A program made the position numbers and the translations under genes. DNA of 64,000 nt from contig CAXNJO010000003.1 in assembly GCA_964202905.1 (NCBI GenBank), positions 727,776-791,775 on the forward strand. Reading direction: 5' to 3'. The notes beneath the pieces are model-generated. The model was not told the origin of the DNA, made no database searches, and worked only from the letters and a program-made list of their open reading frames with translations. Each line of letters begins with the position of its first letter. Positions within the stretch are counted from its first letter, which is position 1. This document shows positions 22,441 through 52,434 of the stretch, piece by piece. The stretch comes from Polyangiales bacterium (GTDB lineage: Bacteria > Myxococcota_A > Polyangia > Polyangiales > JADJQN01).

Positions 22441-23265
22441 TCAGCCCTTCGTCATGAGCCCCGCGCGCTCAAACTCTTTCACGCCGCGGGCCAGCCACTC
22501 CGCGGCGAGGCCCCCGTCGATGCCGATCGCCGCGAGCGCCGCCTCGGGCGAGCGCGCATCCGGGGTCCCGTCTGCGGCGTGGACCAGGATGTCCGCGGCC
22601 GCGACGATCGAGGGGAGTTTGCGGTCGCCAGGCTCGTGGTGATGCAGGCATACCTCGGCGATCTCGTCCGGGAGCTGCCACTTCACGACCAGCGCGTGCC
22701 CCGCCGCCGCGTGCAGCGCATCGACGACGGCGAGCGCCTCGGCGTCGTCGCCGCCCGACGTCGGGAGCCGCTTCGCGACGAGGCTCCAGCAGCGCGCGCG
22801 CCCGAGGTCGTGGAGCAGCCCCGCGAGGAAGGCGTCATCGGGGTCGGCCGGCGCGACACGCGCGAGGGCGCGGGCGAGCGCAGCCGTCGCGACGCTGTGC
22901 ACGAAGTCGGCGGCGACCGCCTTCGCGAAACGCGGCACGTCGACGATCATCGAGGCGTACGCCGTCTGATAGAGCACCTCGCGCAGCGCCGCGCCGCCGA
23001 TGTGCGCGATCGCGCGGCGGGGTGACACATGCCGAGCACCGCGCGCGTAAAGCGCCGAGTTCGCCACCGCGAGCACGCGCGCCGCGAGCGGCGGATCGTT
23101 CTCCGCAAGCGTCGCCGCGGCGTCCACGTCGAAGTCGGCCACGCTCGCGAGGCGCAGCGCCTCGGCCGCCCCCTTCGCGAGCTGCGGCAGATCGCTCGTG
23201 CCCCGCTGCAGATCGCGCTCGACCAGTTCCAGGAGCCCCGCGCCCGCGTTCTCGCTGACGGTCAT
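22441..23265 (-). CDS. HDOD domain protein
   Basis: DPPLAARVLAVANSALY, AGLLHDLG, WQLP, HH. Confidence 0.85.
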   Translation of the reverse strand: MTVSENAGAGLLELVERDLQRGTSDLPQLAKGAAEALRLASVADFDVDAAATLAENDPPLAARVLAVANSALYARGARHVSPRRAIAHIGGAALREVLYQTAYASMIVDVPRFAKAVAADFVHSVATAALARALARVAPADPDDAFLAGLLHDLGRARCWSLVAKRLPTSGGDDAEALAVVDALHAAAGHALVVKWQLPDEIAEVCLHHHEPGDRKLPSIVAAADILVHAADGTPDARSPEAALAAIGIDGGLAAEWLARGVKEFERAGLMTKG

Positions 23266-24278
23266 TCTTCGCCTCCCTCTGCCGCGTTGGTCGAGGCGGC
23301 AGGATACCGACTCCCTCGCGCGAGCACGACACGGTCGCGGCCGCCGCGCTTCGCGTCGTAGAGCGCGCTGTCCGCGGCCTCGAGGAGCACCGCGCGCGTC
23401 AGGCGCGCCCCGGGCGGCCCGTCGCAGAACGACACGCCCACGCTCGCCGTCACGCGGGAGACGCCCGCCTCGGGCGGCAGCGTCAAGTCGCGGATCGCGC
23501 TCCAATAACGCTCGCCGATCGCGACCGCCGCCTCCGGCCGCGCGCCGCGCGCGATCACGACGAACTCTTCGCCGCCGTAGCGCGCCGCGATGTCGCCGCT
23601 GCGGGCGCGCGCGCCGAGCCGCGCGGCGACTTGCTTCAACACGCTGTCGCCCGCGGCGTGGCCGTGCGTGTCGTTGACCGACTTGAAGAAGTCGAGGTCG
23701 AGCATCACGACGACGACCGGCTCGCCGCTCTGCAGCGAGGAGTCGAGCGCCTCGTCCGCCGCGCGGCGGTTCGCGAGCCCGGTGAGCGGATCGCGGAGCG
23801 CTGCGGCGAGCAGCGACGCGCCGCGGCTGCGCACCCAGGCGAGCAGCTCGCGCTCGCGGCGGTTGCGCAGCTGCACGTGGACGCGCGCGCGGAGCTCGGC
23901 GATCCGCGAGGGCGTGACGATGTAGTCGTCGGCGCCGCACATCAGCCCGCTCACGACGCTCTCCTCATCGCCGACGCCGCACGTCACGAGGATGATCGGC
24001 GTCAACATCATCTCGTCCATCATCCGCAGATCGGCGCAGATCGCGAGCCCCGACGCGCCGGGGAGCAGCACGTCGAGCAGCACGAGATCGGGCGGGCGCG
24101 CCTTCACGAGCTCGAAGAGCCCCTCGCCGTCCGGCAGCAGATCGACCTCGTACCCCTCGGACTCGAGCACGCGCGCGAAGAGATACCGACGCGCTTCGTC
24201 GTCGTCGACGACGAGCACCCGGCGCGGCCGATCGGGCGGGGGTGGGAGACTCAGCGCGGTCGGGGGGATGGTGGCCAC
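23262..24278 (-). CDS. REC-GGDEF diguanylate cyclase (PleD/WspR-like)
   Basis: VLVVDDD, LLDVLLPG; DPLTGLANRR, RSGD I-site, GGEEF; start uncertain. Confidence 0.88.
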   Translation of the reverse strand: MATIPPTALSLPPPPDRPRRVLVVDDDEARRYLFARVLESEGYEVDLLPDGEGLFELVKARPPDLVLLDVLLPGASGLAICADLRMMDEMMLTPIILVTCGVGDEESVVSGLMCGADDYIVTPSRIAELRARVHVQLRNRRERELLAWVRSRGASLLAAALRDPLTGLANRRAADEALDSSLQSGEPVVVVMLDLDFFKSVNDTHGHAAGDSVLKQVAARLGARARSGDIAARYGGEEFVVIARGARPEAAVAIGERYWSAIRDLTLPPEAGVSRVTASVGVSFCDGPPGARLTRAVLLEAADSALYDAKRGGRDRVVLARGSRYPAASTNAAEGGEE

Positions 24279-24512
24279 GAGACCTCCGCGGGGGGCTGGG
24301 GGATGCGCGAGCCCGGGGCCCGCTGCGCGGCCGGGGAGGTAGCACGCCCGTGGGCATGGACGATGGGACTTCGGGTTCGCATCCGGAGTCGTTGGGGGCT
24401 GGGAGGAGAATCGACGGGTCGACCGAGTTTCTTGAGCGGTTCCCCTCCTCGCCGCCGGCAGTGTGCCGGGACCGACCCGCGAACGCGACGGGAAAGAAGG
24501 TTCGATTTTCTG

Positions 24513-24541
24513 CTCAAGGCCGGATCGCCCCCGACCGAAGA
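24513..24541 (+). promoter_or_regulatory. sigma28 promoter of fliC
   Basis: CTCAAG-N15-ACCGAAGA. Confidence 0.7.
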
Positions 24542-24611
24542 GATGTCTGCGGCGGAGATGTCGCCCGGACGTCAAGACGACGACCGGTTACCTCAAGGAA
24601 GAGAGAACACC

Positions 24612-25451
24612 ATGGCCATCAGCATCAAGACGAACGTCGAGTCCCTCGGCGCACAGCGCAACCTGAACCAGACGCAGAAGGCCCTCGCGGCGAACTTCGG
24701 GCGTCTGTCGAGCGGCTTGCGTATCAACACGGCAGCGGACGACGCCGCCGGCCTCGCGATCAGCGAGCGACTGAAGTCGCAGATCCGCTCGATGACGCAG
24801 GCCGAGCGCAACGCGAACGACGGCATCAGCCTCCTGCAGACCGCCGAAGGCGCGATGAACGAGAACAGCGGCCTGCTCATCCGCATGCGTGAGCTTGCGA
24901 TGCAGTCCTCGACGGACACCGTCGGCACGGCGGAGAAGGCCCTGCTCCAGACGGAGTTCAACGAGCTGACGGAGGAGATCGGCCGCATCGCGTCGGTCAC
25001 GCAGTTCAACGGCGTGACCCTCCTCGACGGCACGACCACCGCCTTCAATTTCCAGGTCGGCATCGGCACCACGGCGTCGGACACCATCACCGCCGACATG
25101 GAGTCGCTCACCAGCACGTCCTACGGCGCGAGCGGCAGCGACCTCACCACGCTCGACATCTCGACGACCACGGGCGCGCAGGCGGCGCTCACCATGCTCG
25201 ACACCGCGATCTCCGACACCTCGCAGTCCCGCTCGACCCTCGGGTCGGTGCAGAACCGCCTCCAGGTGACGACCGCGAACCTCATGAGCACGCGCGAGAA
25301 CCTCAGCGCCGCGAACTCGCGTATCCGCGACGTCGACGTGGCGGAGGAGAGCTCCGCGATGACCCGCAACAACATCCTGATGCAGGCCGGCGTCTCGGTG
25401 CTGTCGCAGGCGAACCAGGCTCCGCAGACGGCTCTCTCGCTGCTCCGCTGA
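24612..25451 (+). CDS. fliC: Flagellin (279 aa)
   Basis: RLSSGLRINTAADDAAGLAISE, QNRL, SRIRDVDVAEE, QANQAPQ. Confidence 0.98.
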   Translation: MAISIKTNVESLGAQRNLNQTQKALAANFGRLSSGLRINTAADDAAGLAISERLKSQIRSMTQAERNANDGISLLQTAEGAMNENSGLLIRMRELAMQSSTDTVGTAEKALLQTEFNELTEEIGRIASVTQFNGVTLLDGTTTAFNFQVGIGTTASDTITADMESLTSTSYGASGSDLTTLDISTTTGAQAALTMLDTAISDTSQSRSTLGSVQNRLQVTTANLMSTRENLSAANSRIRDVDVAEESSAMTRNNILMQAGVSVLSQANQAPQTALSLLR

Positions 25452-25578: not shown

Positions 25579-26922
25579 GTGCCTGTTGCCTCATTCAGCG
25601 GACTCGCCTCGGGCATCGACTCGACCGCCCTCATCAGCGGCCTCGTGGGGATCGCGCGCCAGCCGATCACGCGGCTCCAGAAGGAGCAGTCGACCCTCAG
25701 CCAGCAGGCCGCGCGCGTCGACGATCTGCGCTCGAAACTCTCCACGTTTCGCACCGCCGCGCAGGCCCTGAACTCCACGCAGGAGGTGCTCGCGACGAAG
25801 GCGAGCTCCGCGGACGCCACGATCGTCAAGGTCACCGCCGGCGCGGACGCCACGACGAGCGCGTACGACATCCACGTCACCTCGCTCGCGACCTCCACGC
25901 GCGCCTACGCGAATCCCGTCGCGGCGAAGGACCAGACCGGCCTCTTCGGCACGGGCACGCTCTCCCTCACGATCGGCACGACCACGACCGACATCACGGT
26001 CGACGCGAGCGACACGCTCGCCTCGGTCGCCGGCAAGATCAACGACGCCGACATCGGCGCGGTCGCCGGCCTCTTCTTCGACGGCACGAACTGGCGGCTC
26101 TCCGTGAACGGCACGGCCACCGGCGCGGCCAACGCCGTGGGCTTCGCCGAGGCGGGCGGCCTCACGCTGGGTCTCTCCGGTCCGGCGAACCTCGTGCAGC
26201 CCGCGCTCGACGCGGTCTTCGAGGTCGATGGCTTCGGGGTGACGAGCGCGTCGAACACGGTGAGCACCGCGATCGAGGGCGTGACCCTCGAGCTCGTGAA
26301 TGCGTCGCCCACGACCGCCTCGACCGGCGTGAAGATCGACCGCGACCCCGCTGCGCTCGAGACGAAGGTCAACGACTTCGCCAAAGCCTACAACGACGTG
26401 ATGGCCGCGATCGACGCGGAGACGCCGAGGAACGGCGTCCCGCGCGCGGGCGCGCTCAGCGGCGACGCGACGCTGCGCAGCATCCAGGCGCGCCTCCGAA
26501 ACGTCGTCGGGCAGGACGTCGCCGGGCTCACCGGCAACTACAAGACGCTCGCGTCGGTGGGTATCTCGCTCGGCCGCACCGGCACGATGTCCGTCAACGC
26601 CACGAAGCTCACTGCGGCCGCGGCCGCCGACCCGATGGGCGTCGCCTCGCTCTTCGCGGCCGAGGGCACCTCGACCGGCCTGATGCGGACGATCGACACG
26701 ACGCTCGAGGGCTACGTCAAGACCAGCACGGGCGTTCTCTCGACCAAATCGAAGGGCCTCCGCGACCGGGCGAACACCCTCAACGACCGCATCGACGGGA
26801 TGGAGCGCCGCGTCTCGAAGTACGAGGACACCCTGAAGCGGCAGTTCGTCTCGCTCGAGCAGCTCGTCTCCGGGCTCAACGCGCAGAGCAACCAGCTCGC
26901 CAGCATCACCCGGAATCTCTGA
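25579..26922 (+). CDS. fliD: Filament cap FliD
   Basis: FSGLASGIDS, IEGVTLEL, LKRQFVSLE. Confidence 0.95.
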   Translation: MPVASFSGLASGIDSTALISGLVGIARQPITRLQKEQSTLSQQAARVDDLRSKLSTFRTAAQALNSTQEVLATKASSADATIVKVTAGADATTSAYDIHVTSLATSTRAYANPVAAKDQTGLFGTGTLSLTIGTTTTDITVDASDTLASVAGKINDADIGAVAGLFFDGTNWRLSVNGTATGAANAVGFAEAGGLTLGLSGPANLVQPALDAVFEVDGFGVTSASNTVSTAIEGVTLELVNASPTTASTGVKIDRDPAALETKVNDFAKAYNDVMAAIDAETPRNGVPRAGALSGDATLRSIQARLRNVVGQDVAGLTGNYKTLASVGISLGRTGTMSVNATKLTAAAAADPMGVASLFAAEGTSTGLMRTIDTTLEGYVKTSTGVLSTKSKGLRDRANTLNDRIDGMERRVSKYEDTLKRQFVSLEQLVSGLNAQSNQLASITRNL

Positions 26923-26991: not shown

Positions 26992-27366
26992 ATGTCGTTC
27001 GCAGTCGCTCAATATCAAGCCAGTCGCATCGAGACATCCTCACCGGTGCAGATCGTCGTCACCCTCTACGACGGGGCGCTCCGCTTCCTGCGCACGGGCA
27101 TCAACGCCCTTCAGGTGGGCGACATCGCGGGCAAGGGCATCGCCCTGACCAAAGCCCACGCGATCATCACCGAGCTCCTCGTGACGCTGAACCACGAGGC
27201 CGCCCCGGAGATCTCCGGGCAGCTCGAGGCGATCTACTCCTTCGTCCTCGACCGCATCCTCCGCGCGAACGCGGAGTGCGACGAGAAGCTGATCGACGAG
27301 GCCATCCGCGCGCTGCTCCCGCTGCGCGACGCCTGGGCGCAGCTCGCGCGCACGGGCCACCCATGA
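26992..27366 (+). CDS. fliS: Flagellin chaperone FliS
   Basis: SPVQIVVTLYDGAL, L..IY, LRDAW. Confidence 0.93.
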   Translation: MSFAVAQYQASRIETSSPVQIVVTLYDGALRFLRTGINALQVGDIAGKGIALTKAHAIITELLVTLNHEAAPEISGQLEAIYSFVLDRILRANAECDEKLIDEAIRALLPLRDAWAQLARTGHP

Positions 27367-27770: not shown

Positions 27771-28511
27771 ATGCCCACGATGCTCCGCCACTTTCCGACG
27801 CATCCCTTCTACGACACCGACACGTTCGCGGCCTCCGAGCGGGACCCGCACTTCCGCATCACGCGCGCCCTCGAGCGCTCGCGGACGGAGCTGGAGACGG
27901 TCCTCATCGAGGTGAAGCGGACGACCTCCGCGACCCGACGCCTCGAGCTCGTCGACCGCGCGCTGCGCCTGCACTTCCTCGGCTCGCGGCTCGGGCGCCG
28001 CCTCTCGCTCCTCGGCGACGGCGGGCTGCTGACGCTCTCGGCGATCCGCGAGGCCGACGTCGCGAGCGTCATCCGCGAGTGCGCGTTCGAGATCGCGCCG
28101 GAGTGCCGCCGGCGCCACATCGTCCTCGAGCTGCGCCTCGACCCGAGGCTGCCCTCGACGTGGATCGACACCGAGCAGTTCGCCGAGGCGATGCGCTGCA
28201 TCCTCGACGACGCGATGGCCGCGTTGCCCGAGCAGGGCACGCTCTTCGTCGAGGCGCGCAGCGACGGCTACGGAATCGCCCTGATGGTGCACGACGACCG
28301 CCCGCGCGACGGGGGCCTCAGTCTCGACGCCGGCGAGCTCTACGTCGCGGCGCGGTTCGCGGACGCGCTCGACGGCGACCTCGAGCGGCGCGTCATCGGT
28401 TCCGGCGCGTCGGCGCTCACCGAGACGATCCTCCGCATCCCCGAGGTGCGCGCGGTCGGGCTCACGGCCGAGACCGCGCCGCCGTCCGCCGGCTCGTCGA
28501 AGGCGGCATGA
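27771..28511 (+). CDS. Degenerate histidine-kinase ATPase-like protein
   Basis: LDPRLPSTWID.EQF.EAM..ILDDAMAALP..GTL; N-box and G1 box altered. Confidence 0.55.
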   Translation: MPTMLRHFPTHPFYDTDTFAASERDPHFRITRALERSRTELETVLIEVKRTTSATRRLELVDRALRLHFLGSRLGRRLSLLGDGGLLTLSAIREADVASVIRECAFEIAPECRRRHIVLELRLDPRLPSTWIDTEQFAEAMRCILDDAMAALPEQGTLFVEARSDGYGIALMVHDDRPRDGGLSLDAGELYVAARFADALDGDLERRVIGSGASALTETILRIPEVRAVGLTAETAPPSAGSSKAA

Positions 28512-29029
28512 GCCGCGCGCTCCCGCCGCTCGCGCTCGCAGCCTTCCTCGCGACGTTCGCGCTCCCCGCCGGCGTCGATGCGCAGACGCGCTCGTACGCC
28601 GCGTCGCTCACGGGCGGCAGCGGGCTCTCCATCGGCAACGGCGCGCAGACCGCCGTCCTCGCGCGGACGCCCGTCTTCGTCGACGTCGCGCTGCGCACGA
28701 CGCGCAGCGACGAGCCCACCTTCGCGTGGGGTGGCGCGTTGCGCGTCGAGGTCGACGGCCGCGTGGGCATCGGCGGCGTCGCGCGCGCCGAGCTGGTGCA
28801 CCCCCTCGGGCCGGTCGCGCTGCGCGCCGGGATCGGCGTGCCGTTCTTCTTCGCGCCGTACGTCTTGCTCGGCGTCGAGGGCTCGCTCACGCTGCGGTGG
28901 CCCGCGACAGCCCCCATCGCCGCGACCGCGTCGATCCTGCTCGATGCCTTCTTCGCCGGCAGCGACCTCCCGCGCAACAGCGCGCTCTTCATGGCCAACG
29001 GAGCCCTCGGTGTCGACTTCCTCTTCTAG
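28508..29029 (+). CDS. Hypothetical exported protein, possibly a small OM beta-barrel
   Basis: Signal peptide, alternating strands, C-terminal LGVDFLF. Confidence 0.55.
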   Translation: MSRALPPLALAAFLATFALPAGVDAQTRSYAASLTGGSGLSIGNGAQTAVLARTPVFVDVALRTTRSDEPTFAWGGALRVEVDGRVGIGGVARAELVHPLGPVALRAGIGVPFFFAPYVLLGVEGSLTLRWPATAPIAATASILLDAFFAGSDLPRNSALFMANGALGVDFLF

Positions 29030-29030
29030 C

Positions 29031-29396
29031 GTGCCTGTCGACCCGCGGGTCACGGTGGGCTTCGCGTGTGCCCCACGCTCGCCACACCGCCGCCCGCTGC
29101 GTCGTGCGTTCAGCGCCGCCGCGTGGCTCGTCGCGGCCGCCGTGTGCGCCATGCTCGGTGCGTGCACCCCCGACGCGTGCCTCCGCGAGAGCGACTGCGC
29201 CGCCGGCTTCACGTGCACGGCCGGCGCCTGCACCGAGGACCCGGTCGACGCCGGCCGCGCCGATGCCGGCACGCTCGACGCAGGCCCCCGCGACGCCTCG
29301 GCCGCCGACGCCGGCCCGCGCGACGCCGGCCCCACGGACGGCGCGACGACCGAGGTCGACGCAGGCACGGACGCCGGCAGCGACGCAGGCGCCTGA
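29031..29396 (+). CDS. Small Cys-rich lipoprotein with DAG repeats
   Basis: LGAC lipobox, C-x4-DC..GFTC..GAC, repeated DAG; start uncertain. Confidence 0.5.
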   Translation: MPVDPRVTVGFACAPRSPHRRPLRRAFSAAAWLVAAAVCAMLGACTPDACLRESDCAAGFTCTAGACTEDPVDAGRADAGTLDAGPRDASAADAGPRDAGPTDGATTEVDAGTDAGSDAGA

Positions 29397-29482
29397 CCCC
29401 CCGCCGCGCTCAGCCCCGCGGTGGCGCGCGCCAACCGCCGCGCAGCCCGGGCAGCACGGCCAGGCGCCCGCGACGTTCGGTT

Positions 29483-29540
29483 TCGCGGAACGTCGCAACG
29501 AGGTTGCGACATCGCGGAACGTCGCAACGGGGTTGCGACA
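29483..29540. repeat. Two 29-bp direct repeats, each containing the palindrome GTCGCAAC-N3-GTTGCGAC
   Basis: Units 29483-29511 and 29512-29540, one mismatch, between convergent genes. Confidence 0.85.
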
Positions 29541-29580: not shown

Positions 29581-30183
29581 CTACATCGACGCGAGCAGCG
29601 CCTTGTCGGCGACTTCGTCGAGCGGGGCTTGCGGCGACAAGCCGGAGGTGTCGAGCACCACCTGCACGCCGAAGCGCTCGGTCATCGAGATGACGACGGG
29701 CGCGAGCAGGTTCGCGCTCGGCGGGCCGCCATCGCCCGGGATGACGAGCACGACCGCCACGACCGCGGACTCGAGCGGGATGCCCGACGCGGCGCACGCG
29801 GCCTCGAGCGGATAATCGGGGAACCACGTCGCCGCGTCCGCGACGACGAAGCGGATGGCCGGGTCGTCCTCGGCGACGAGCAGTCGCAGCGAGGGCGCGC
29901 CGGGCACCTCGCAAGGGAAGAAACGCGTGTAGACGCGGAGGCCGAGGAAGCCGCCGCGAATCTCGAGCACTTCTTCGCCGGACGGCACGGACAGGGCCAG
30001 GGATTGCAGCGCGCGGCGGTTCTCCGCTTCGATGCGCTCCACCACCTCGCCGCGATGGATCGAGACCGTGCGCGGCGCCGTGACGCCGACGCGCACACGC
30101 CCGCCCCCGACGTCGAGGATGGTGACCTCGATGTCACCGCCGATCACGATGCGCTCGCCTGCGCGGCGCGTGAAGGTGAGCAT
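29581..30183 (-). CDS. csrA: CsrA-FliW fusion protein
   Basis: Residues 1-60 MLTFTRRAGERIVIG..VRVGVTAP..IHRGE..ENRRA (CsrA); remainder GGFLG, FVVAD..FPDY, ANLLAPVVI, QVVL (FliW). Confidence 0.85.
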   Translation of the reverse strand: MLTFTRRAGERIVIGGDIEVTILDVGGGRVRVGVTAPRTVSIHRGEVVERIEAENRRALQSLALSVPSGEEVLEIRGGFLGLRVYTRFFPCEVPGAPSLRLLVAEDDPAIRFVVADAATWFPDYPLEAACAASGIPLESAVVAVVLVIPGDGGPPSANLLAPVVISMTERFGVQVVLDTSGLSPQAPLDEVADKALLASM

Positions 30184-31067
30184 CAGCGACCGCCGCCGAC
30201 GAGCCCCGGGAAGGGCAGGCGCGACGCCACGGCGACCGCCGCCTCGAGCGCGCGCTCGGCGTTCAACAGCTCGGAGTATGCGCGGTACGGGTCAACCTCG
30301 ACCTGCTCCGCGCGCGACGCGGCGCTGCGATCCTTCACGAGCTCCGCCGTCGACAGGGTCACCTCGAAGCCGCGGATCTGCCCGCCGAGCTCGACGCGCG
30401 AGCCGTTGACCTGCTGGGCCGACGCGTCGAGGCCGGCGATGGTCGCGCGCACGGCGTCCGGGTCGTTGGCGTCGAGCGCCGTCGCGAGCTGCTCGAGCGT
30501 CGCGAGGACGTCCGTCCCGGTGCCGGCGCCGAACGTCGTCGCGCCGGACACGCTCATGCTCAGCCGGAGGTAGGGCGCGACCTCGGCCTCCTTCACCTGA
30601 CCGTCGCCGCTGTAGGCACCCGTCACCGCGTCGAAGGGCGGCGCGCCGTCGCGGTAACCACCGAACACATACGTCCCATCGACCTCGCGGTTCGCGGCGT
30701 TGACGATCTCGAGACGCAGCTCCCGCGCAGCCGCAGCCGCGAAGGTGCGCTCGTTCGCCGTGTACGTGCCGTTCGCCATCTGCACGGCGAGCTCGCGGGC
30801 GCGGGCGAGCGCCTCGCCGGTCTCGGCGAGGGCCTGGTCGGCACCGATGGCGACCGACATCGCGTATTCCGAGGTGCGCGCGCTGGCGGTCGCCGTGGCC
30901 TCGCGCGCCGTGTCGCGGCGGCCGAGGGCGAACGCGACCGGGTCGTCCGAGGGTTTCTGGACACGCAGCCCGCTCGACGCGATGGACGTCGCGGCGGACG
31001 AGCGCTCGCGCGCGTTCGCGATCGCGCGCTGCCCCAGCTCGTGGACCATACCGTCGGATACACGCAC
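30183..31067 (-). CDS. flgL: Hook-filament junction FlgL
   Basis: SSGLRVQKPSDDP, MANGTY, YVFGG. Confidence 0.9.
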   Translation of the reverse strand: MRVSDGMVHELGQRAIANARERSSAATSIASSGLRVQKPSDDPVAFALGRRDTAREATATASARTSEYAMSVAIGADQALAETGEALARARELAVQMANGTYTANERTFAAAAARELRLEIVNAANREVDGTYVFGGYRDGAPPFDAVTGAYSGDGQVKEAEVAPYLRLSMSVSGATTFGAGTGTDVLATLEQLATALDANDPDAVRATIAGLDASAQQVNGSRVELGGQIRGFEVTLSTAELVKDRSAASRAEQVEVDPYRAYSELLNAERALEAAVAVASRLPFPGLVGGGR

Positions 31068-31069
31068 GG

Positions 31070-32455
31070 CTACCTCCTGAGGGCGAGTAGGCTGCTGAGC
31101 ATCTCATCCGCGACGCGGACGACCTCGAGCGATCCTTGGTAAGCGCGCTGGTAGCGGGTCAGGTTCATCATCTCTTCGTCGAGCGTCACACCGGAGATCG
31201 AGGACCGCAGCGCTTCGATCTGGACCTTCGCGTCGTCAGTGTACGCGCGATCGCGGATGGCTGTCCGCACCAAAGTTCCCACCTCCGCGCCCGCGTCGGA
31301 GAAGGCGTCGTTCGCGGTGCGCGTTCCGCCCGAGGCGAACGCGGTCGACGCGAGGGCCTGCAGCGCGAGGGCGTTGCGGTTGTCACCGGGCAGCGAGGTG
31401 ACGTCCGTCGCGGCCGCGAGGCGCCGCGGCTGGCCGGCGATGCTGGCCGAGAGCGTGATGTTCCCGGCCGCGCCTGCGGATGTGGCGGGCACGTCGAAGA
31501 GGTCGTTGCCGGTGCCGCCGTCGAGGTCGAAGCCCGTGGACTGCACGGCGTTGTAGGCGGTCGCGACGTCGAAGGCGAGCTGGTCGAGGCGCTGGGCCGC
31601 CGTGGTGATCGCGCCGTCGCGGGCGGCGACGAGGCCGGCGATGGTGCCGCCTTCCGCGTAGCTCGTGACGTCGACGGGCGCGCCGGCCTGGATGGCCGTG
31701 ACGCGCATGTCCCCCGAGCCGGGGGCCAGCGAGGCCGTGAGCAGGTGCGCCTGACCGTCGCGCGAGACGAGTTCCGTCCGGCCGCCGAGCAGCACCGTGA
31801 GCTGGCCGTCGTCCTGCGCGATCGTGGTGATCGTGATCTGGGAGGCGACCTCGCGGACGAACTGATCGCGGCGGTCACGCAGGTCGCCCGCCTCGCGGCC
31901 GTCGACCTCGGCCTTCGAGATCTCGGTGCCGAGCTGCGCGATCTGAATCAACCGCTCGTTGATCGTGCCGACCTCGTCGGCGAGCTTGCCGTTCGCGTCC
32001 GCGCGGGCCTCGGAGACGCGCGCGGAGGCCTCGTTGAAAGCGCGGGCGAGCCCATCGGCCGTCGAGAGCGCCGCCACGCGGGGGGCGTACTCGCCGGGCC
32101 GCGACGCGACCTCGGCGATCGCGGCCTGGAACGCGTCGAGCTGGACGCCGAGCCCGGAGTCGCCGAACACCTCGTCGACCGTCGTGAGCGCCTGGGCGCG
32201 GGCCGCCGCCTCGCCCGCGCTCGCGCGGACCCCGAGGAGGCGCTTCTCGACGAACGCGTCGACCACACGGTGATAGCCGACAGCGCGCGCGCCGTTGCCA
32301 CCCGCTGGCGCCGGGCCGAGCGGCGTGAGCATCGCGATGCGGCGGGTGTAGCCCTCCGTCGCGACGTTGGACGCCCCCTGCGACGCGACGTTGGCGCCGA
32401 ACGTGCCGGCCGCCATCCCGTTGGCGCCGACGTTCAGGAGGCTCATGACAGTCAC
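31070..32455 (-). CDS. flgK: Hook-filament junction FlgK
   Basis: NVATEGYTRR, DLRDRRD, SGVTLDEEMMNL..YQRAY. Confidence 0.93.
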   Translation of the reverse strand: MTVMSLLNVGANGMAAGTFGANVASQGASNVATEGYTRRIAMLTPLGPAPAGGNGARAVGYHRVVDAFVEKRLLGVRASAGEAAARAQALTTVDEVFGDSGLGVQLDAFQAAIAEVASRPGEYAPRVAALSTADGLARAFNEASARVSEARADANGKLADEVGTINERLIQIAQLGTEISKAEVDGREAGDLRDRRDQFVREVASQITITTIAQDDGQLTVLLGGRTELVSRDGQAHLLTASLAPGSGDMRVTAIQAGAPVDVTSYAEGGTIAGLVAARDGAITTAAQRLDQLAFDVATAYNAVQSTGFDLDGGTGNDLFDVPATSAGAAGNITLSASIAGQPRRLAAATDVTSLPGDNRNALALQALASTAFASGGTRTANDAFSDAGAEVGTLVRTAIRDRAYTDDAKVQIEALRSSISGVTLDEEMMNLTRYQRAYQGSLEVVRVADEMLSSLLALRR

Positions 32456-51009: not shown

Positions 51010-51672
51010 TCACATCCCGATGCTGGTGACGTCACCGAGCATCACGCGCGCCTCCCCGATCACGACCTCGGGGTAGCCGTTCGCGTAGCTGATCTCGCGG
51101 ACCTCCCCGCGGATGCGGGTGCTCGCGTCGACGGGGCGGTTGGCCGCGTCCGTCGCGGAGACCTCGACGGTGTAGCGCCCCGGGGGCACGCGCTCTCCGT
51201 CCGGTCCGATGCCGTTCCAGGAGACCGAGCGCGTCCCCGGGAACGTGTCGCTGAGCTCGACCTTGCCGACGACCTCGCCATCCGCGTTGCGGAAGGTCGC
51301 CGTCACCTTCGCCGCGCGGGCGCCGAGGGTGATCGGCACCGACGCGCTGCCCGCGTCGTCGAGGTAGACGCTCTTGGTCTCCGCCTCGACGGTCTTGCCG
51401 ACGAGGCCGCTGACCTGCGTGTTCGCGAGGCTCGCCATGCCGACCTCGAGCGAGGCGAGCCGGTCGCTCATCGTCACCAGCTGCTCGACGCTCGTGAGCT
51501 GCGAGAGCTGCGTGATGAAATCCTTCGAGTCGACGGGCGACTCCGGGTCCTGGTTGCGGAGCTGCGCGACCAGCAGCTTCATGAAGGCGTCGCGCCCCAT
51601 GCCGTTGAGGTCGCCCTGCTTCTGGGCGGTCATCCCGCCGAGGTTCGATGACGAAACGTTCGACACAGCCAT
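51010..51672 (-). CDS. flgD: Hook cap FlgD
   Basis: AFMKLLVAQLRNQDP, QLSQ..SVEQ, WNG; RBS GAGGAGG. Confidence 0.92.
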   Translation of the reverse strand: MAVSNVSSSNLGGMTAQKQGDLNGMGRDAFMKLLVAQLRNQDPESPVDSKDFITQLSQLTSVEQLVTMSDRLASLEVGMASLANTQVSGLVGKTVEAETKSVYLDDAGSASVPITLGARAAKVTATFRNADGEVVGKVELSDTFPGTRSVSWNGIGPDGERVPPGRYTVEVSATDAANRPVDASTRIRGEVREISYANGYPEVVIGEARVMLGDVTSIGM

Positions 51673-51674
51673 GA

Positions 51675-52434
51675 TCAGGCCTCCTCTTCGAGATCGGCTA
51701 CGGCGCCGGGGCGCCCGGGAAACGGTGGTGCGGGAGTCGCTCGCGACGTCCACGCGCAGGGCGCGGAGGGCGACGCCGCGAGTCGCGAGCGCCTTCGCGA
51801 CCGAGGGCTCGAGCGCGCGGAGCAGCGCGGCGGTGGCGCTGTTCGGGGTGAGCGCGCGCAGCGAGACGGCGCCGCCGGCGAAGGAGAGCTCGAGCCGGAT
51901 CGGGCCGAGCTCCGGGTGCACGATCTCGATGACCGCGTCGGCGCCGCCCGCGCCGAACTCGACGGCCGAGGCGTGCGCGGAGACGAGGGCCGCCATGACG
52001 GGGGTTGCGGGCGAGGCGGGGCGCGGGGGAGCGCCGGCGGGTGGCATGTCCGCGACGAGCGATGCGGACGTCGGGGCGGGCTGGATCGGGGTGGCGACCG
52101 CGCGGGAGGCCGCGGCACGGACGAGGGCCTCGACGTCGCTCGGTGACGGACCGCGGACCGCGGGGCCTGCGTCGGGCGCGTCGTTCGCCGCATTCGTGAC
52201 GTGGGCCCGCGCCGAGACGTGGGCGTGCTGCGCCGCGTGCAGGGCGAGGTCGTCGGAGCGGCCCGGCCCCTGCCCTTCGGGCGTGGTGCGGAGGGACACC
52301 CGCGCCGGCGCCGGCGCGGCGAGCGTGAGGCCGTAAAGGAGGGCGTTCACGGCGTCCGAGAGTTGGGGAGAGACATCGACGCCGAGCTCACGGACCGGGA
52401 GCTCGTACGCGCTTCCGAGCGCACTCGCCTTCAT
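51675..52434 (-). CDS. fliK: Hook-length control FliK (short); reads in frame into flgD as given
   Basis: Pro/Ala-rich N-part; IEIVHPELGPIRLEL T3S4 domain; between fliJ and flgD. Confidence 0.7.

Follow-up and report, generated by a model that had tools for sequence, protein, structure and literature searches.

A natural single-chain CsrA-FliW fusion in flagellated myxobacteria and its candidate role as a flagellin sensor

Here we describe a gene of an uncultured flagellated myxobacterium in which CsrA and FliW, the separate proteins of the flagellin (Hag)-FliW-CsrA partner switch, are encoded as a single open reading frame (ORF). In the accessible parts of the literature this switch is described for Bacillus subtilis, and also for Campylobacter jejuni and Clostridioides difficile. 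The product consists of CsrA (residues 1-58), a 14-residue linker and a FliW domain without about 10 N-terminal residues, and is a real fusion that has long been kept; CsrA (PF02599) and FliW (PF02623) occupy one ORF here and throughout a clade of related proteins, unlike in the two-protein switch. We propose that the protein is an autoinhibited, single-chain flagellin-FliW-CsrA sensor, a reading that we infer with a probability of roughly 0.6. A full-text search, with subscription papers (including the 5DMB structure paper) beyond its reach, found no description of a natural CsrA-FliW fusion, and in the papers listed that name both proteins the word 'fusion' refers to reporter or tag fusions. 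The natural single-chain CsrA-FliW is an uncharacterised variant of a known partner switch.

The host genome spans 5.68 Mb on 19 contigs and is 94% complete. The window, that is, the whole 64,000-nucleotide stretch of DNA analysed here, is a large flagellar cluster (Table 1). A flgK-flgL operon ends with the fusion gene, whose ATG shares 1 nt with the flgL stop (TGATG). No other CsrA and no other FliW was found in the genome, so the fusion is the sole copy of each. Besides the flagellin gene of the window, the genome carries a second one on contig C11.

Table 1 Features of the window, with positions counted from its first nucleotide
Feature	Position	Strand	Description
fliE to fliI, flgE, fliQR, flhBA, flhFG, fliA, flgFGHI, flgM, flgK, flgL	window	(-)	
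motAB, fliD, fliS	window	(+)	
Response-regulator/GGDEF diguanylate cyclase gene	23262-24575	(-)	divergent from the flagellin gene, with a common upstream region
Putative CsrA site CTCAAGGAAGAG	24592..24603	(+)	9-20 nt before the flagellin ATG, overlaps the Shine-Dalgarno sequence
Flagellin gene	24612..25451	(+)	279 aa
fliD	25579-26922	(+)	downstream of the flagellin gene
fliS	26992-27366	(+)	downstream of the flagellin gene
Two small secreted-looking ORFs	28500-29400	(+)	between fliS and the fusion gene; judged from ORF translations only
Two tandem 29-nt repeats	29483-29540		probably a terminator-like element
csrA::fliW fusion gene	29581..30183	(-)	one ATG-started ORF, 200 aa plus stop
FliW domain, residues 73-190	29614..29967	(-)	profile and fold matches
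Linker, residues 59-72 (14 residues)	29968..30009	(-)	sequence variable, pLDDT about 57
CsrA domain, residues 1-58	30010..30183	(-)	beta core and C-terminal helix 45-57
flgL (hook-filament junction protein)	30183..31067	(-)	directly upstream of the fusion gene, translationally coupled
flgK	31070..32455	(-)	
474-aa ORF	51010-52434	(-)	possibly a FliK-FlgD fusion, or else an ORF called too long

Several other features of the cluster were observed alongside the fusion gene. One of the two small plus-strand ORFs ends in an outer-membrane-type C-terminal Phe, and the second combines a lipobox-like signal with a tail rich in Asp, Ala and Gly. The two 29-nt repeats contain one 8-bp hairpin apiece (stem GTCGCAAC / GTTGCGAC, 3-nt loop) and occupy the gap in which a small plus-strand ORF and the fusion gene converge; the paired motif was found nowhere else in the genome. 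We considered these repeats as a CsrB-like decoy RNA and rejected the idea, as there are just two copies, no others in the genome, and they sit between convergent genes. The 474-aa ORF has a FliK-type Flg_hook match at residues 159-234 (30.1 bits against a cut-off of 29.8), with FlgD N-terminal, Ig-like and Tudor domains downstream of it.

An initial annotation, made from the sequence of the window, had read the 200-aa ORF as a complete CsrA including the ENRRA extension, a short linker and a FliW core, with no ribosome-binding site at the junction, and profile searches bear this out. Pfam CsrA matches residues 1-52 with 73.9 bits (cut-off 27) and Pfam FliW matches residues 75-187 (profile positions 3-121 of 122) with 49.5 bits (cut-off 25), both within the same ORF. 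The fusion also passes two NCBIfam CsrA equivalogs (74.4 against a cut-off of 73, and 70.8 against 70.1). The C-terminal helix of the CsrA domain carries Ile51 and Asn55, and the ENRRA motif comprises residues 54-58. Cut-offs of the full-length NCBIfam FliW models are not reached (best 51.7 against 165), with matches beginning at profile positions 8-21. The FliW N-terminus is short: unfused relatives have about 10-13 extra N-terminal residues, and the FliW of 5DMB can be aligned to the fusion by sequence only from its residue 19 onward. There is no in-frame stop within the ORF, no Shine-Dalgarno-like sequence was seen at the CsrA/FliW junction, and no internal Met is conserved across 18 orthologues; in-frame GTG codons in the linker encode Val66 and Val72.

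The possibility that a lost stop or a frameshift, introduced in sequencing or assembly, has joined two genes deserves attention because the assembly is of metagenome type. The initial annotation had pointed to reads across 29980-30030 as a check, and assembled Logan contigs from two lake-water metagenome runs of one study bridge this junction with no indel (X1 record 4, covering 29895-30500, and X2 record 8, covering 29807-30095). These contigs show just two substitutions, G>A at 30009 and at 30058, and by codon reading each is synonymous. As the study may be the assembly's own source, we take the contigs as weak independent support and the orthologues as strong support. One contig of run X3, with a depth of 4.7, has a 1-base deletion at 29663, but this position is well away from the junction. 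A stop at the junction misread in this assembly, such as TAA read as CAA, had also been envisaged; the contigs report no difference in the CAA codon of Gln60, and the orthologue matches run without stops.

Ten other genomes from six families carry the fusion at 35-67% identity, each with one match. Both domains lie in a single ORF in nine of these ten, and the tenth (G001) ends at a contig edge. Within the same family, two of three other genomes gave a full-length, single-frame match without stops, and the third (94% complete) gave no match to the fusion query. A class-level sample of 401 genomes contained 117 with a match, and in eight of them, from families f3, f4, f6, f8 and f22, it was full-length, single-frame and without stops. 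A word-index search added 11 homologues, 10 of which have both domains (195-201 aa, 48-84% identity); the remaining one is a fragment on a 1-kb contig. In their source databases these proteins are called only 'carbon storage regulator'. Finally, searching 1.84 billion representatives with a profile yielded 50,362 matches at E ≤0.001, and among the 150 of these matches listed, which are 50%-identity representatives, 50 were assigned as CsrA-FliW by two HMMs, two of them doubtfully, leaving 48 firm single-ORF cases. The same single ORF thus recurs in 10 other genomes, 10 word-index homologues and 48 firm representatives, and, with the junction bridged in two runs, an artefact has next to no chance of being the explanation and is refuted for practical purposes.

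The listed matches and the word-index homologues together gave 160 proteins for comparison. Among them were 60 CsrA-CsrA, 12 FliW-FliW and 3 FliW-CsrA proteins, as well as 4 four-fold CsrA proteins (P0012-P0160 set). The linkers of the CsrA-FliW proteins among the matches listed are either 14-26 or 30-60 residues long.

To trace the origin of the fusion, we compared it with unfused csrA-fliW pairs of the same class (loci L015-L017, L022-L025, L027, L029, L030 and L032-L035). In these myxobacterial loci csrA also precedes fliW, the genes overlapping by 4 nt (L016, L027) or by a few codons, or being closely spaced, and the proteins share with the fusion the ENRRA-type helix and the FliW motifs ANL..P and G.Q. 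Unlike the fusion, they are two ORFs, their CsrA has a tail of 25-50 residues past the ENRRA-type helix, and their FliW has its own N-terminal strand. Set against these relatives, the tailless CsrA and shortened FliW indicate that the fusion joins a CsrA cut at about residue 60 to a FliW starting from about residue 11. In family f2 of the same order, separate csrA and fliW genes lie about 29-31 kb apart on one contig (for example G173:C190 and G386:C16).

A quick maximum-likelihood IQ-TREE analysis of the FliW domains (101 rows, 121 columns, SH-aLRT support only) was made with P0003 (a near copy), P0119 and P0145 (doubtful two-domain proteins) and all FliW-FliW and CsrA-only rows left out. One clade with an SH-aLRT of 98 unites 40 short-linker fusions with 4 fragments and with 1 N-truncated fusion that had been scored as long-linker, and the short-linker junctions of this clade measure 14-23 residues. 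Every fused locus of the class falls inside this clade and the unfused class relatives fall outside. This pattern fits one old fusion event between adjacent csrA and fliW genes, followed by retention in at least six families. The long-linker and remaining short-linker fusions scatter among unfused FliWs, with starred branches of the tree forcing at least four state changes. Fusions outside the clade therefore look independent, and the CsrA-FliW design seems, from these sequence relationships, to have arisen more than once.

We then asked which functional residues are retained, counting conservation over 36 members of the fusion clade. The RNA-binding residues of CsrA, as known from mutagenesis in E. 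coli, are Leu2, Arg6/Arg7, Arg44 and their neighbours. In an alignment with the E. coli-type CsrA 1Y00, the RNA-binding residues of the fusion are identical, and across the clade Leu2 (35 of 36), Arg6 (36 of 36), Arg44 (35 of 36) and Glu46 (36 of 36) are kept. The FliW-binding Asn55 of CsrA is kept in 32 members and absent from 4. On the FliW side, Asn158, Ala161 and Gln174 are each invariant (36 of 36), and Gly172 is kept in 33 of 36. By sequence alignment to 5DMB chain A, on which the mapping rests, fusion residues Leu80, Phe112, Asn158, Ala161, Gly172, Val173 and Gln174 correspond to P26, F58, N108, A111, A122, K123 and Q124 of Bacillus FliW. According to the accessible text of Oshiro et al. 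(bioRxiv 10.1101/2020.07.02.184341), P26, F58, N108, A111 and Q124 form a cluster near CsrA N55 that is needed for binding, and Q124 and N55 are in direct contact. The Asn55/Gln(124) contact pair is thus common to the fusion and the Bacillus switch.

A further Bacillus contact is missing. The portion of the same preprint available describes a salt bridge between Asp41 of CsrA and Lys123 of FliW that is required for inhibition and not for binding (bioRxiv 10.1101/2020.07.02.184341). Unlike in Bacillus, this salt bridge is absent from the fusion, which has Ser41 and Val173, and across the clade none of the 36 members is acidic at position 41 and just 8 have Lys or Arg at position 173. FliW binding therefore need not inhibit CsrA in the way it does in Bacillus. 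In C. jejuni, as PMC7829508 describes it, FliW binds CsrA at the helix (V51, N55), and CsrA can do without its last 15 residues. A dispensable tail fits a CsrA cut at about residue 60, just after the helix.

Structure models were in line with the domain assignment. An AF2 model of the single chain, built from 18 sequences, had a mean pLDDT of 85.1 and a pTM of 0.77, with a pLDDT of 57 in the linker block 61-70; a pTM this high for a two-domain chain suggests, as far as the model goes, that the domains have a defined mutual position. The FliW part matched 5DMD, 5JAK and 5DMB_A with Foldseek E values of about 1e-8, and the value for 5DMD (2.6e-8) joins the Pfam score in settling that the C-terminal part is a FliW, the point on which the initial annotation had staked its reading. 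Its claim that this FliW lacks the N-terminal strand stood in part: it holds at the sequence level, but linker residues 61-72 are modelled along the path of the first FliW strand, as a low-confidence coil, in AF2 and in the VIA superposition. The latter placed model residues 61-190 on residues 6-139 of 5DMB_A (Z 14.2, rmsd 2.4 A, 128 residues). By VIA the CsrA part matched CsrA/RsmA chains with Z 4.8-4.9 (4.9 to 1VPZ/2BTI). In the Geobacillus thermodenitrificans CsrA-FliW crystal complex (PDB 5DMB), the fusion thus has counterparts for both domains, its FliW domain superposing on chain A and its CsrA matching chain D (Foldseek E 2.1e-3 over 64 alignment columns). That complex differs from the fusion in being non-covalent, with two chains of each kind, and its FliW has about 20% sequence identity to the FliW part of the fusion.

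We also modelled the 279-aa flagellin encoded in the window (18-row alignment A3) in complex with fusion residues 61-200 (alignment A2). The predicted complex scored 0.61 (runs 0.64, 0.56 and 0.61), compared with 0.00 for the best of three controls. Of 157 solved complexes 116 reach the 0.61 mark, as do 2 of 215 mismatched pairs, a yardstick that is rough here since our own alignments were used. The score expresses how confident the model itself is, and resemblance to known pairs may contribute to it. The runs had at least 38% of contacts in common, with a partner pLDDT of at least 79. On the FliW side, the predicted interface comprises residues 77, 79-84, 109-113, 145-151, 156, 158, 160-161, 174, 176, 178 and 184-185, and so takes in the equivalents of all five residues of the CsrA-N55 cluster (80, 112, 158, 161 and 174). 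On the flagellin side it is formed mainly by 211-234, in the C-terminal helix, together with 50-64 and 149-159. The model supports flagellin as a candidate ligand of the fused FliW domain. Provided that it is correct, flagellin would compete with the CsrA helix for one FliW face, as a partner switch requires.

Asn223 and Asn230 of flagellin are invariant in alignment A3, and in a gap-free alignment Asn230 falls on residue 255 of the 5WJT flagellin (304 aa). We take the latter flagellin to be Bacillus Hag and its residue 255 to be the asparagine reportedly required for FliW binding. A Hag asparagine tied to FliW binding is mentioned in PMC5466977, and the same text places the FliW site of C. 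jejuni flagellin in its N-terminal part. This speaks against a site in the C-terminal helix, although the interface predicted here extends to residues 50-64 as well. Among the flagellin PDB entries listed (60 and 57), no solved FliW-flagellin complex was found.

The flagellin mRNA leaders carry candidate sites for the CsrA domain. We compared 23 flagellin leaders from 11 fusion-bearing genomes with a background of 2170 ORF leaders of this genome. The motif CTCA[AC]GGA lies within 32 nt of the start in 20 of 23 flagellin leaders and 3 of 2170 background leaders, and the looser CA[ACT]GGA in 22 of 23 and 56 of 2170, respectively. A GGA-loop hairpin of at least 5 bp is also present in 15 of the 23, and both features (hairpin and CA[ACT]GGA) occur in 11 of 2170 background leaders; since the flagellin leaders are related to each other by descent and the background starts were guessed from the longest ORFs, this contrast overstates independence. 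The two flagellin leaders of the genome differ. The leader in the window (24500-24611) has the Shine-Dalgarno-overlapping site and a weak upstream hairpin, whereas that of the C11 copy (L036 1915-2010, (-)) has two clean GGA-loop hairpins: a 7-bp stem topped by the loop AGGAA, and a further hairpin that exposes GGA in its loop and uses the Shine-Dalgarno sequence as its 3' arm. Folding energies of the whole leaders were no different from those of shuffled sequences (z -0.51 and -0.43), and only the local GGA hairpins carry weight. A genome-wide scan for the 12-nt pattern CTCA[AC]GGA[AG]GA gave 30 matches, nearly all in coding sequence, and was rejected as a map of the regulon because only the flagellin site and a site at one 70-aa ORF precede starts. 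In the latter, on contig C16 near 55719 (+), CTCACGGAGGAG stands three bases before the ATG. Being the sole non-flagellin start in the genome with the 12-nt site, this ORF is a possible second CsrA target.

These observations bear on how the fusion could work. The fusion protein would dimerise through its CsrA domains, and each FliW domain would dock on the CsrA C-terminal helix (Ile51, Asn55) via its Asn158/Ala161/Gln174 face. The tether makes the local concentration of FliW very high, and the docked FliW would therefore keep CsrA off flagellin mRNA by default. As unexported flagellin builds up, its C-terminal D1 helix (about residues 211-234, including Asn223 and Asn230) would compete for the FliW face, and the freed CsrA core would bind the GGA hairpin and the Shine-Dalgarno GGA site of the flagellin leaders and block translation. 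Export of flagellin would reset the switch. The initial annotation had likewise proposed a one-component, autoinhibited flagellin sensor, and the proposal is partly supported: the RNA-binding residues, the Asn55/Gln174 pair, the AF2 model, the leader sites and the predicted interface speak for it, and the absent salt bridge, the 4 clade members without Asn55, the loss of the first FliW strand at the sequence level, the C. jejuni data on the flagellin site and the weak upstream hairpin of the window's own flagellin leader speak against it.

Two other accounts of the gene have to be weighed against the autoinhibited sensor. Internal initiation or proteolysis of the linker could yield separate CsrA and FliW from one ORF, and an ordinary two-protein switch would then operate. 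The linker is variable and modelled with low confidence, and the GTG codons at Val66 and Val72 are in frame, but neither GTG has a Shine-Dalgarno-like sequence before it, the linkers of the 18 orthologues have no start-type residue in common, the FliW part is without its own first 10 or so residues and the short junction of 14-23 residues is kept by a single clade, all of which makes two products very unlikely. Alternatively, CsrA could be permanently silenced or act as a dimerisation scaffold, making the protein a dimeric FliW-type flagellin chaperone without RNA regulation. A tethered inhibitor could in principle never let go, and the fusion has no counterpart of the salt bridge that is linked to allosteric control in Bacillus. 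Such a role is hard to square, however, with the retention of Leu2, Arg6, Arg44 and Glu46 in 35-36 of 36 clade members, with flagellin leaders of which 20 of 23 keep the Shine-Dalgarno-overlapping site and 15 the full two-site CsrA layout, and with a genome that has no other CsrA to use these sites. We consider a silenced CsrA unlikely.

Within the autoinhibited-sensor reading, the covalent tether may also change the logic of the switch. According to the accessible text of PMC6529632, one FliW inhibits one CsrA dimer in Bacillus, a 1:1 ratio set by translational coupling; here, covalent linkage gives two FliW domains per CsrA dimer. With two FliW per dimer and an antagonist that cannot diffuse away, CsrA is predicted to be off by default and to respond to flagellin with a steeper threshold. 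If one FliW suffices for each dimer here, two flagellins would be needed per dimer, and the response would be steeper. Moreover, because flagellin-bound FliW cannot leave CsrA, repression would fall to a ternary complex that keeps flagellin attached, through FliW::CsrA, to the mRNA that encodes it. Were this so, both FliW domains would have to be occupied before RNA binding, and flagellin mRNA-protein complexes might be delivered to or localised at the export gate. That the tether does alter the switch in these ways, with a flagellin-FliW::CsrA-mRNA ternary repressor, a cooperative two-flagellin threshold and steric or tether-driven inhibition without the Bacillus salt bridge, is a tentative and on balance doubtful proposition.

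Compared with the Bacillus switch, the fusion uses the same two protein families, lies in a late-flagellar operon near flgK and flgL, and comes with flagellin leaders that have a GGA hairpin and a GGA site on the Shine-Dalgarno sequence. It differs in being one polypeptide instead of two, and in having neither a CsrA tail past about residue 60 nor the first 10 or so FliW residues. The gene order differs as well, csrA preceding fliW here and fliW lying upstream of csrA in Bacillus, as stated in the accessible part of PMC6529632.

How FliW inhibits CsrA has been argued in terms of allostery, electrostatic repulsion and core contact, as far as the accessible text of two reports goes (bioRxiv 10.1101/2020.07.02.184341; PMC7829508), and the stoichiometry dependence of the partner switch is, in the part of PMC6529632 available, an active question. 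A natural fusion with a 14-residue link is a ready-made test object for the inhibition of CsrA by FliW. It fixes the ratio of the partners, limits their geometries and can be compared directly with unfused relatives of the same class, and it is without the salt bridge required in Bacillus and yet has been kept across several myxobacterial families. Public annotation hides this CsrA-FliW architecture. The myxobacterial lineage is better known for gliding, and the cluster described here documents in it a complete flagellar regulon.
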